Shown piece by piece: positions 4,282 to 36,969 of a DNA stretch of 42,684 nucleotides. The DNA comes from a virus (Duplodnaviria > Heunggongvirae > Uroviricota > Caudoviricetes): IMG/VR virus record IMGVR_UViG_2529292907_000016; one strand, written 5' to 3'. The notes beneath the pieces are model-generated. The model did not search any database and was not told the DNA's origin. It worked only from the letters and a program-made list of their open reading frames with translations. Both the position numbers and the translations under genes were made by a program. Each line of letters begins with the position of its first letter. Position 1 is the stretch's first letter.

Positions 4282-4355
4282 CGTCTTTTCTGCCTGTTTC
4301 TGAATTAAACAGAGTCAGAATAGCGACCGCTGAAAAATATGTGTTTTGCGGAAAT

Positions 4356-4387
4356 TCAAAAAAGCGTCACGGTACTTTTGGTGACGG
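4356..4387 (-). terminator. Intrinsic terminator at the 3' end of gin
   Basis: Minus-strand RNA: stem CGUCAC/GUGACG with 10-nt loop followed by CUUUUUUG; stem overlaps the last gin codons. Confidence 0.55.
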
Positions 4388-4939
4388 AGCTGGTGAGGCA
4401 GGAAAATAACGATAAAGGGTGGAAAGGCCAATATCAAATATCAGTGCGATTTGTTTACGGGACTCGCCATTAGCCAGCAAACGGGCGATTTGCTCCCGCT
4501 CTTTCTCTGTCAGTTTCTGAGGTCTGCCGCCATGACGCCCCTGAGCACGGGCAGCAGCAAGACCCGCGCGTGTACGTTCAATAATGAGTTCCCGCTCCAT
4601 TTCCGCCAGCGCGCCCATTATATGGAAAAAGAAACGTCCCATGGGAGTGGATGTATCAATATTGTCCGTAATGCTGCGGAAGTTAACGCCGCGTTGCCGG
4701 AGTTCTTCTGTTAAAAGGACAAGGTGCTGCATACTGCGTCCAAGGCGATCCAGTTTCCAGACCAGCAGGGTATCCCCTGGCCGGAGTCGCTTTAATGCGC
4801 GTTTAAGTCCGGGACGCTCCCTTGTCTTACCGCTTATTCTGTCTTCGAAAAACAGCTCACATCCTGCACATTCCAGCGCATTTCTTTGTAGCGCCGTATT
4901 CTGGTCATTTGTTGACACCCTGATATACCCAATCAGCAT
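4367..4939 (-). CDS. gin: Serine DNA invertase (Gin/Hin/Pin/Cin family)
   Basis: N-terminal MLIGYIRVSTNDQ (catalytic Ser region), resolvase fold and C-terminal HTH; adjacent to inverted recombination sites. Confidence 0.9.
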   Translation of the reverse strand: MLIGYIRVSTNDQNTALQRNALECAGCELFFEDRISGKTRERPGLKRALKRLRPGDTLLVWKLDRLGRSMQHLVLLTEELRQRGVNFRSITDNIDTSTPMGRFFFHIMGALAEMERELIIERTRAGLAAARAQGRHGGRPQKLTEKEREQIARLLANGESRKQIALIFDIGLSTLYRYFPASPAPSPKVP

Positions 4940-5004
4940 ACGATTTCCTTATTATAAAAAGCCGGAATTGTCGCATGAGGAATAAAACAGAGTTAATCCT
5001 GGCT

Positions 5005-5982: not shown

Positions 5983-6864
5983 TTATATACTTGCAGCCGT
6001 CACCCATGCTCCATTTAACAGATACTGCAACGGCCGGTAATACACGCCGCCGACGTTATCTGCCGTATTCTTACCGACATCCTGTACTTTAATTCCGGTA
6101 AGAACATTGCCGCCCCCCAGATTCAGATCCCAGCTTTCCCATGTTCCGGGCATATGTGCGGTCACCGACCCCAGTCTTATGGCGGTTACTGTTCCTGATG
6201 AGATAGTGATATCCTGCGTCCCGTCAAAGGGAACACCATTAATTGTGTGGGCATTTGCCAGCCTGTTCGCGGCAACGGCGGTGCCGTCCGATGGCAGGGC
6301 ATTCGCCGCCCTGTTTACCGTTTCCCGTAAACCGACGTTATCGATAAAAGCCCCTTTATCCGGAATGTCTGCGCCGTTCTGCTCCCTGCGCAGGTAACGG
6401 TTATCACCTTCGCTTTTGCTGTAAACATCCAGATTATTACGGGCGGTTCCCTTATTCTCCAGGTCGGCGAGATTCTGATCCTTCGCCAGGGCATTAACGT
6501 CAGCGGGACCAAGACTGTTTTTTGTGGCAAGCGTCCCCAGACCAAGATAACCACGGGCCAGACGCTGGGCCTCCGCACCGGCATCAGCAATTTCTTTCAG
6601 GTTATTTTTCCGGGAAAAGGCATTCGCAGCGATAATGGCTTTAATGGACAGCGTAAGCTGGTTTAACTGCGCCTTATCCGGCTGAATACTGGCTTCAGCC
6701 AGAATATTCAGCAGTTCGGCCTGGAGAATATTCAGCCAGTCCTGACCAATCCAGCTGATACCTTTTTGTCCGTCACCTTCGGTAAACCAGGTGGTGGTAT
6801 TACTCTGCGCCGGTGCCAGCGCAGGCATATTCGCCACGCCGGAATTATTATCAACATGAAACAT
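5983..6864 (-). CDS. Tail fibre protein (S-like; constant part 6864..6336 joined to variable part 6335..5983 in this orientation)
   Basis: ORF spans recombination site B; follows the baseplate genes. Confidence 0.75.
6213..6333. repeat. Inverted repeat arm matching 5019..5140
   Basis: Reverse complement aligns with 5019..5140 (one mismatch in the first 62 bp). Confidence 0.7.
6322..6347. other. gix-like recombination site B (core GA), inside the tail fibre gene
   Basis: TTCCCGTAAACC GA CGTTATCGATAA; inner half-site is the exact reverse complement of the inner half of site A. Confidence 0.55.
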
Positions 6865-34937: not shown

Positions 34938-35480
34938 TTATTCCTCCGTCAGCGCCACATATTCAGAATGTTTAATTTCCTGGCATTCTTCAGGAATACC
35001 CCCTTTTATTTCCCTGCCATAAGCGCCTACTTTAAACACCACGCACAGGGCATCACGGGAGAGCGACGGGGTCCACCAGGAGTCCGTGTTAAACATGGAG
35101 GGGATTCTCATTACCCCCAGCTTTTCACAGAGCCAGACAAGGAAATCAGGACGCTTTCTTAACTCACGTTCAGCGGTTTCAATCATTGCGGCAATCGCCG
35201 GACCTTCAGGGCATGACTCATCAGGTCTGGCAATAAAGCACGGTCCGTCCCCGATAAAAGCCACATCATCGCGCTTACGCCAGCCCGCAGGCAGAGAACC
35301 AGAAAAATAAAACTCACTGATTACGTCCATGGCGAACGGCTTTAAGCGCAATCCGGCAGCGCCTGTATTTTTCAGTAATGCCCGAAGAATACTGTTGCGT
35401 AGCGGTAAAACATCCCGCTGATATTCGGTTAAATATTTATTTGTGTACACTATGTCTAATTTGAAATAAAAATATGCCAT
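34938..35480 (-). CDS. Hypothetical protein (180 aa)
   Basis: ORF preceded by ~100-bp AT-rich gap after gam. Confidence 0.45.
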   Translation of the reverse strand: MAYFYFKLDIVYTNKYLTEYQRDVLPLRNSILRALLKNTGAAGLRLKPFAMDVISEFYFSGSLPAGWRKRDDVAFIGDGPCFIARPDESCPEGPAIAAMIETAERELRKRPDFLVWLCEKLGVMRIPSMFNTDSWWTPSLSRDALCVVFKVGAYGREIKGGIPEECQEIKHSEYVALTEE

Positions 35481-35577
35481 ATTTCCTGTTCCTTATTTTC
35501 AGTTTACAGGCGCAGGCAGTCCCCTGACGCGAGCGCCATAATTAACACGATGTGATATTTAAAGATTTAATGCGGTG

Positions 35578-36108
35578 TTATTTATTCAGTCCGGCGTCCT
35601 GTTCAAAAGGCTCGACATAAAAACTTTCAGCGCCTTTATTCACCTTTATACCGGCAATGCCCTTCACCGCATCTGGCTCCGCCAGGACAGCTTGCTTATT
35701 CACTTCCTCTTTCGTGCGGATGAAGCGCTCAAGGCCCATACGGCGCAGCATTTCAATCACGCCTTCCACATCACGGCTGACGCTGCATGATGGCGTTCCC
35801 AGCCGCCATGACACCGTTCCGGTGGTCAGATTGGCTGTTTTGGTTTCGCCGCCGTTCGTCAGCTCATTGCGGTTGGTTTTACACCAGTCATGAATCCCCT
35901 TAAAAAGCACTTTGATTTCTTTTTTAAGGTTTTCAATCTGCGGCGTATAACGGGCGGTGATTTCTGCCACTTCGTCATTCATCGCCGTTTCCAGGCGTAG
36001 TGCCTCACGCTGCATATCCCCAAAGCGTCGGATATCGCGGCTGACCTCTTCACGGGTCTGCGGTGCTGCCTCGGCTGCGGCCTTTAATTTTGTAACGCGT
36101 TTAGCCAT
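35578..36108 (-). CDS. gam: Gam-like host-nuclease inhibitor (DNA end-binding)
   Basis: 176 aa; strong resemblance to Mu Gam (…DIRRFGDMQREALRLETAMNDEVAEI…NGGETKTANLTTGTVSWR…). Confidence 0.8.
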   Translation of the reverse strand: MAKRVTKLKAAAEAAPQTREEVSRDIRRFGDMQREALRLETAMNDEVAEITARYTPQIENLKKEIKVLFKGIHDWCKTNRNELTNGGETKTANLTTGTVSWRLGTPSCSVSRDVEGVIEMLRRMGLERFIRTKEEVNKQAVLAEPDAVKGIAGIKVNKGAESFYVEPFEQDAGLNK

Positions 36109-36119
36109 TTTGTTTTTCC

Positions 36120-36440
36120 TTATTGCAGTGTGCCTGATGCTTTATGCACGCGGTGGCGTTTAATGATGGCATCCGCCCCAAAAGCCTGTACAGATGCCTG
36201 AAATTCCGCTGAGAGAAACTGAATAATTTCAGGACTGTGATACTGGAGAATACTTGCATAAACGTCACAGAGTGACGTCGGCCTGTTATCCGTATCACGT
36301 TCTGTTTTTACATCCACACCAATCTTTTCATGCACTTCAACACTGTCATTGCCTGCCGGTTTTTCGTCATGCGAAACATGCTCAAATTCAAAAATAACGC
36401 GTACTTTGCTCATGGAATTACCCCTGCTGATTAAATTCAT
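36120..36440 (-). CDS. Hypothetical protein, paralogue of 36418..36690 (likely start MSKVRVIFEFE at ~36413)
   Basis: Shares N-terminus MSKV(V)R(V/I)IFE(F/Y) with the neighbour. Confidence 0.45.
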   Translation of the reverse strand: MNLISRGNSMSKVRVIFEFEHVSHDEKPAGNDSVEVHEKIGVDVKTERDTDNRPTSLCDVYASILQYHSPEIIQFLSAEFQASVQAFGADAIIKRHRVHKASGTLQ

Positions 36441-36690
36441 TACCGTTAATAACCCCGGAAGCCATGCCCCTGTCTTTCATGAATGCACTGGCTTTCATTG
36501 CCACAAGCTCTGCGAAGTTTCTGCTTTCTGCCAGCATAACCACCCCAAAAATCATGGCGGGGCTATCATTTTTCTGCTTTATTCCGGTTGAACGTATATC
36601 CAGACTTACCCCCATGTGCACTGTTCCATCAGCGTTTTTACGGATAACGTCCTCCTTGTATTCGAAAATAATGCGCACGACTTTACTCAT
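36418..36690 (-). CDS. Hypothetical protein, tandem paralogue
   Basis: MSKVVRIIFEYKED... Confidence 0.45.
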   Translation of the reverse strand: MSKVVRIIFEYKEDVIRKNADGTVHMGVSLDIRSTGIKQKNDSPAMIFGVVMLAESRNFAELVAMKASAFMKDRGMASGVINGNEFNQQG

Positions 36691-36968
36691 CCTCTGGCCC
36701 TCGTTCTGTTTGGATAACTGACCCGGCGTCTGACCTCACGGCAGAACTGAACCATGGCATTAAAGGCTTCTTCTTCCGTCACCGCTTCCGGTATTCCAGG
36801 AACCAGTAGCTGTTCCTGTTCATCGCGTCCATGACGCGCCACAACATCAATCACATGCCGTACCGTGGCGGGCTTTCCGGCAACTATCGGCAATGCACCT
36901 TCCGGCAGGACGTAACCAAACTCAATAAGACCACTCGACCACGCCCATGCAATGAGATTTTTTTTCAC
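36687..36968 (-). CDS. Hypothetical early protein (93 aa)
   Basis: ORF in early operon. Confidence 0.4.
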   Translation of the reverse strand: MKKNLIAWAWSSGLIEFGYVLPEGALPIVAGKPATVRHVIDVVARHGRDEQEQLLVPGIPEAVTEEEAFNAMVQFCREVRRRVSYPNRTRARG

Positions 36969-36969
36969 C

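Follow-up and report, generated by a model that had tools for sequence, protein, structure and literature searches.

A tandem pair of small, very probably anciently diverged genes in the early operon of an Escherichia coli Mu-like prophage

The window analyzed here, a stretch of 42,684 nucleotides, is an Escherichia coli Mu-like prophage of host type O157 with its genes on the minus strand. The initial annotation of this DNA had pointed to two adjacent open reading frames (ORFs) with nearly the same beginning, and both are indeed found there on the minus strand, sharing the N-terminus MSKV(V)R[IV]IFE[YF]. We refer to the upstream gene as P1 and to the downstream gene as P2. They belong to an early operon that runs in the order MuB ATPase, 75-aa ORF, kil, g93, P1, P2, gam, and its relevant features are as follows:

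37461-38393, minus strand: MuB-type AAA ATPase of the same early operon (ORF and PGAP)
37237-37464, minus strand: 75-aa ORF between the MuB ATPase and kil
36970-37224, minus strand: kil homologue (phrog_2679, E 7.8e-46; PGAP start), upstream border of the variable slot
36687-36968, minus strand: g93, upstream neighbor of P1 (93 aa, phrog_1518), with a presence that varies among relatives
36418-36690, minus strand: P1 (90 aa, pI 9.2, phrog_4107), an E. coli-restricted branch of the family, beginning MSKVVRIIFEYKED
36652-36690, minus strand: P1 codons 1-13, N-terminal motif MSKVVRIIFEYKE, predicted first beta strand
36414-36425, minus strand: P1-P2 junction, with an AGGGG Shine-Dalgarno-like run in the end of P1, TAA and a 4-nt spacer ahead of the P2 ATG
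36120-36413, minus strand: P2 (97 aa, pI 5.8, phrog_2230; PGAP CDS WP_000049302.1), beginning MSKVRVIFEFEHV; a branch that occurs beside gam/DUF3164 in Enterobacterales Mu-like prophages, with relatives in Salmonella, Serratia and Klebsiella
36381-36413, minus strand: P2 codons 1-11, N-terminal motif MSKVRVIFEFE, predicted first beta strand
35578-36108, minus strand: gam, host-nuclease inhibitor (PF07352, E 6.9e-40), downstream border of the slot

The genes are closely packed: the stop codon of g93 overlaps the ATG of P1 as ATGA, and the ATG of P2 lies 4 nt past the P1 TAA, with the AGGGG run 8 nt upstream. In the program-made ORF list, P2 begins at an ATG further upstream (36440), whereas PGAP and all homologues support the start at MSKV. 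The coding strand between P1 and P2 is without any promoter- or terminator-like site, a search of Rfam over 35400-37600 returned nothing credible, and neither the plus-strand ORFs at 36349-36591 and 36464-36721 nor the out-of-frame minus-strand ORF at 36101-36298 match any PHROG. GC content is 42-45% in the 75-aa ORF, P1 and P2, compared with 53.6% across the window and 52-56% in B, kil and gam, a base composition consistent with these three genes being horizontally exchanged accessory cassettes.

Two further features of the locus deserve mention. The frame of transposase A (38468-40576, minus strand) is interrupted by an in-frame TAG at 39131-39133, which splits it into ORFs of 481 aa and 197 aa (...MRDLPS*SELIDAIRDG...), and from this stop codon the window is probably a transposition-defective copy of the prophage. 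For g93, PHROGs labels phrog_1518 as 'host nuclease inhibitor', while Pfam yields no match; in E. coli variants that do without g93 (L012, L036 3010-3430), a Mu E7-like 139-aa gene precedes kil and an in-frame remnant lies immediately upstream of P1.

The initial annotation regarded P1 and P2 as paralogues, and their similarity does reach past the first residues. Aligned directly, the two proteins match by BLASTP with an E value of 0.009 and 22% identity over 74 aa. A hidden Markov model (HMM) of the P2 family, built from 84 sequences and run on the 556 ORFs of the window, identifies P1 as its sole further match (E 1.4e-5, aligned over residues 1-79; best decoy 0.62), and comparison of the P1 family with a widened P2 family by hhalign yields 93% probability and an E value of 2.8e-7 over 75 columns. 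In the full-length column-shuffle control, the observed score of 39.8 compares with 10.7 ± 2.3 for shuffled profiles, none of which reached it in 100 trials (z 12.7). With the N-terminal 11-13 residues removed, hhalign retains an E value of 4.2e-5 over 54 columns (0/100 shuffles, z 6.5), and a trimmed HMM still places P1 as the top non-self match (E 0.0066; best decoy 0.51), so that the likeness extends well into the protein bodies. The alignment is collinear over its 75 columns and includes a common G/S-P motif and a helix. At the nucleotide level, the 5′ ends of the two genes differ mostly synonymously (AGT/AGC, GTC/GTA, TTC/TTT), which indicates that the motif is maintained as a protein feature and does not owe its likeness to a recent exchange of DNA. 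P2 matches phrog_2230 (E 2.7e-40, residues 3-97 on profile positions 1-88 of 89) and P1 matches phrog_4107 (E 4.5e-56, residues 1-90 of 90) as full-length members. These two families, both of 'unknown function', are separate in PHROGs and are joined here by profile comparison; one family protein, P0163, matches both. We consider it very probable that P1 and P2 belong to the same family and diverged anciently.

Structure prediction had also been proposed as a check. AlphaFold2 returns the same order of elements for both proteins, an N-terminal beta hairpin followed by helices, in models of low confidence (pLDDT 60 and 66.5); the predicted hairpin spans E6-18/E24-36 in P1, followed by one helix, and E4-18/E26-39 in P2, followed by helices. 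The N-terminal motif, M[SA]K(V)x[VI]I[FI]E, is predicted to supply the opening strand of this long hairpin, behind which two helices follow. Fold searches were all empty, and a sequence search of the PDB revealed no relative of either protein; the profile matches obtained there were spurious, as exemplified by a designed TIM barrel (E 5e-4 over 31 residues). Neither gene matches Pfam, in which PF07352 is matched only by the downstream gam, nor NCBIfam or PADLOC, and the DNA-binding families among the Pfam, PHROGs and NCBIfam/PADLOC profiles contain no match to P1 or P2.

Similar beginnings are also found on other small phage proteins. In IMG/VR, many small phage ORFs (58-89 aa; L111-L159) with unrelated bodies start with MAKVIIE[FIL]; this set was picked by search pattern, with 49 found against an estimated 5 or so chance matches. 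Several lie in Mu-like contigs (L120, L125, L140, L149 at about 4199, L152, and L145 at 6647-6832). In distant Mu-like contigs, one of 69 aa (MAKVIIEITGKGSGF...) is flanked by a kil-like gene and by DUF3164, in the slot that P1 and P2 occupy, and another of 61 aa adjoins DUF3164 and an HU-like gene.

The P1-P2 pair is kept in 226 of 5426 complete E. coli genomes, with both genes annotated by PGAP, and stands in tandem in 65 of 66 IMG/VR loci; the great majority of these 226 genomes and 65 loci have both genes intact. Mean pairwise dN/dS is 0.31 for P1 (17 alleles) and 0.44 for P2 (20 alleles), whereas B and Gam are at 0.10, and g93 and kil at 0.13-0.14. P1 and P2 are intact, constrained coding genes. 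The family is narrow, as indicated by an exhaustive HMMER search with the P2 profile that returned only 11 representatives. A tblastn search of 50,697 phage records with P1 and P2 found only two Stx-phage records with an inserted Mu-like element, with Mu itself unmatched, and scans of metagenomes with the MAKVI subfamily and of IMG/VR with the L077 protein yielded no confirmed relatives and no intermediates. In one E. coli sequence, P0036, an in-frame deletion joins P1 1-49 to P2 80-97 at a common 'FG' dipeptide, which implies that the two genes can recombine illegitimately into a hybrid.

A survey of copy number among related Mu-like phages, another check put forward with the initial annotation, proved informative: every examined related Mu-like prophage outside the Sp18-like E. 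coli lineage carries exactly one member of the family, and that lineage carries two. Single members are present in prophages of Salmonella (L004, L009), Klebsiella (L007), Serratia (L006), an Enterobacteriaceae isolate (L077) and Kluyvera (L080), as well as in L010 and the Yersinia Muvirus vB_YpM_5. The single member sits directly upstream of gam, or of a DUF3164 gene that replaces gam; in L004 and L007 (Salmonella and Klebsiella; 4303-4941 in both), the gene that directly follows the family gene encodes a DUF3164 protein of 212 aa instead of Gam. E. coli CI5 has P2 and is without g93 and P1.

Comparison of related phages reveals the P1/P2-family gene as the most diverged gene of the early operon. 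Between CI5 and the window, amino-acid identity is 98% for B, 94% for Kil, 95% for Gam and 96% for gp11, and 62% for P2; dS is 0.72 for P2 and 0.15-0.27 for the flanks. The excess of synonymous divergence implies that the P2 allele is older than its surroundings, which points to an exchange of alleles and not simply to a gene that changes fast in place. Between L010 and the window, Gam is 85% and B 72% identical, and the slot gene 22-25%. The clearest case is provided by Mu and vB_YpM_5, in which kil, E5, E7 and E8 share 97-100% nucleotide identity and the intervening sequence, which begins at around codon 6 of E6 and ends with the E6 stop codon, only 27-50%; the vB_YpM_5 protein in the E6 position (MAKVIFEFTW..., 89 aa) is a member of the P2 family (HMM E 1.5e-14). 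What is swapped is thus a cassette the size of one gene, and the slot has diverged far more than the genes around it. The family, whose proteins measure roughly 85-100 aa, occupies this hypervariable position in Mu-like transposable phages of Enterobacterales, bounded by kil on one side and by gam or DUF3164 on the other.

The occupant of this slot in Mu has an experimental phenotype. Mu E6 (gp7, Mup07, NP_050611.1, NC_000929 4784-5047) is gnarl2 (Silas et al., Nat Commun 2025; PMC12373910; preprint bioRxiv 10.1101/2023.04.06.535777), which its authors chose as an accessory gene of a highly variable region. When expressed in wild E. coli, gnarl2 shifts O-antigen bands down, and it raises T5 infection 10^5- to 10^6-fold in ECOR1 and ECOR22 (PMC12373910). 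Like P1 and P2, gp7 is a short early protein (87 aa) encoded in the kil-gam slot, of a similar length class and with the same N-terminal motif (MAKVIIEI, compared with MSKVRVIFE). The Mu order kil-E5-E6-E7-E8-gam parallels kil-g93-P1-P2-gam in the window, and in vB_YpM_5 a P2-family gene exactly replaces Mu E6 between flanks 97-100% identical to those of Mu. Mu differs in having one copy where the window has two; its gp7 is without the G/S-P motif of P1 and P2 and is assigned to phrog_10252, whereas P1 and P2 fall in other PHROGs, and the O-antigen phenotype is reported for Mu gp7 only.

Profile comparisons connect gp7 to the family weakly. Variants of gp7 match phrog_2230 over their full length (E 3e-4 and 9e-3), and the gp7 family aligns with a MAKVI-type subfamily (vB_YpM_5, L077, L080) at 88.7% probability (E 2.6e-6, 71 columns), which in turn aligns with the P2 family at 97.8% (E 1e-12). 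Compared with the whole P2 family, gp7 reaches 9% probability and an E value of 0.0035, with 0/100 shuffles as good. Once its 9 N-terminal residues are trimmed, the match of gp7 to the MAKVI subfamily drops to a probability of 2% (E 0.022, with 1/100 shuffles scoring as well), so that beyond these residues its relation to P1 and P2 is not demonstrable in profile comparisons. Neither P1 nor P2 matches phrog_10252, and Mu gp7 finds nothing among shallow P1 or P2 profiles. Membership of P1 and P2 in the Gnarl2 family, argued mainly from position and N-terminal motif together with weak similarity, is probable and unproven.

Taken together, these data favor a reading that we judge, as a whole, to be somewhat better than an even bet: P1 and P2, very probably of one family and long diverged, fill the slot that E6 holds in Mu and serve as accessory proteins. 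The genes would share the transcript of A, B, kil and gam, started at the early promoter upon infection or induction, and P1 and P2 may be translationally coupled. Their small size, their variability and the lack of any domain match suggest protein binders rather than enzymes, which would act non-enzymatically on host proteins in host takeover or in the modification of a host barrier. That so variable a gene lies between conserved flanks suggests a partner that varies as well, for which a host factor is the simplest candidate. The pair would then represent two stacked alleles of different specificity; the opposite net charges of the proteins (pI 9.2 and 5.8) fit either two different targets or a heterodimer. 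That P1 and P2 are host-directed accessory proteins seems to us reasonably likely. The initial annotation had suggested proteins evolving against a host target, and this idea stands as plausible and indirect: the hypervariable slot, the dN/dS of 0.31-0.44 against 0.10 in core genes and the Gnarl2 phenotype speak for it, but dN/dS above 1, the mark of positive selection, was found for neither P1 nor P2. By analogy with Mu E6, the target might lie specifically in O-antigen/LPS biogenesis, a proposal that we make tentatively and give a low probability, clearly below that of a host-directed role as such. DNA mimicry was considered and rejected, given that the proteins are not strongly acidic.

The initial annotation spoke of tandem duplication with divergence, and a recent duplication in place, followed by very fast divergence under positive selection, would explain why P1 and P2 are adjacent, co-oriented, similar in length and alike at the N-terminus, with dN/dS above that of core genes. 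We nevertheless think it unlikely, and as a recent event the duplication is not supported. The two proteins are only 19% identical; the top P2-family matches of P1 are P0161-P0163 of the Klebsiella/Salmonella branch (E about 1e-6), not its neighbor P2 (E 0.13); and a neighbor-joining tree places P1 outside the clade formed by E. coli P2 and the Salmonella, Serratia and Klebsiella genes. The synonymous differences between the 5′ ends and the dN/dS below 1 in both genes also speak against it, as does the fact that each gene keeps one junction of the ancestral type: P1 retains the Salmonella-type upstream junction, the ATGA overlap with a g93 homologue, and P2 the short spacer to gam seen in single-copy loci. 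Two old alleles stacked side by side, or a very old duplication, fit these sequences better, and unequal or illegitimate recombination between phages could have brought such alleles together. Another alternative denies any relationship beyond the shared N-terminus and sees in it a tag, retained at the 5′ border of an exchangeable cassette, where it would serve as a linker for recombination or for the initiation of translation. Such a tag would account for the divergence between the Mu and vB_YpM_5 cassettes setting in only past about codon 6, for MAKVIIE recurring in small phage ORFs whose bodies are unrelated and of which some occupy the same slot, and for the collapse of the gp7 link on trimming. 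The P1-P2 signal, however, outlasts the same treatment (E 4.2e-5, z 6.5, with P1 as the top non-self HMM match), the alignment runs collinearly through the G/S-P motif and the helix, the predicted order of secondary-structure elements is identical, and synonymous differences within the tag argue for selection on the peptide; we therefore judge this alternative very unlikely.

Alternatives concerning function must also be weighed. That one or both ORFs are functionless, decaying remnants in a defective prophage might be suspected from the in-frame TAG in transposase A of the window and from the frameshifted and fused variants held in databases (P0036, P0055 and P0060, for instance), but the intactness of both genes across most of the 226 genomes and the 65 IMG/VR loci, along with dN/dS far below 1, renders decay highly improbable. 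A phage-directed role has more to recommend it, and we treat it as a minor candidate. P1 and P2 could be small factors that bind DNA or act as regulators, perhaps paired as a basic/acidic heterodimer, and that tune the transposition or replication of Mu or the expression of its early genes: they lie in the early operon near A, B and gam, P1 is basic and P2 acidic, and a predicted beta hairpin with helices is compatible with nucleic-acid binders. To our knowledge, several phenotypes of the semi-essential early region of Mu have never been assigned to genes, which leaves room for such factors. Yet the prospective phage partners A, B and Gam are well conserved and the slot holds the most variable gene, P1 is absent from some relatives, slot content is swapped between near-identical phages as is typical of dispensable accessory genes, and no DNA-binding family is matched.

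A bolder extension of the preferred, host-directed reading may be envisaged, which we put forward as doubtful: the E6 slot of transposable phages would hold one very large, hypervariable family whose common N-terminal strand, M[AS]KVxI[IF]E, docks or dimerizes, and whose variable body sets specificity for host proteins of envelope (O-antigen/LPS) biosynthesis that differ between strains, with the O157 prophage stacking two such specificities. Were this true, a single phage could remodel or mask more than one surface type upon induction, allele type should track host O-serogroup, and the slot would amount to a natural collection of small, serotype-specific proteins that inhibit O-antigen enzymes.

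Several aspects of these results are new. Two PHROG families, phrog_2230 and phrog_4107, are joined into one; the joined family is placed in the slot of E6/Gnarl2, the only member of the slot with an experimental phenotype; and the tandem pair is interpreted as two old alleles, not as a fresh duplicate. Small, fast-evolving accessory genes constitute the phages' store of host-manipulating tools, most of them without known function, and in pathogenic E. coli (O157, O26, O111) one such gene is present as two divergent copies within Mu-like prophages. Mosaic accessory genes will not surprise a specialist, but the link to Gnarl2 makes a specific function directly testable, and the alleles of the slot provide a natural set for seeking the target of Gnarl2. 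Should that link fail, the pair would count as ordinary mosaic accessory genes.

Among known systems, the internal proteins of phage T4 provide an architectural analogy only: Ip1-Ip3 also combine a short conserved N-terminus with highly variable bodies, each with its own host target. The T4 proteins are made late and packaged, and their N-terminus directs them to the capsid, whereas P1 and P2 belong to the early operon and the corresponding segment is predicted to form a beta strand of the structure; for these reasons a T4-like signal for targeting or cleavage at the N-terminus was set aside. Gnarl3, a small protein of a lytic phage that binds GalU (PMC12373910), serves as a working analogy for a small non-enzymatic accessory protein that changes the O-antigen by binding a host enzyme. 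It comes from another type of phage and has no sequence relationship to P1 or P2, and is thus a model for action, not for membership. Closer at hand are kil and gam of the Mu semi-essential region, which belong to the same operon and are dispensable and host-directed, as proposed for P1 and P2, although their sequences are unrelated and Kil and Gam are far better conserved than the slot. Seen against these systems, P1 and P2 are fast-evolving accessory genes of the Mu semi-essential early region, of a kind already known, in a two-copy arrangement.
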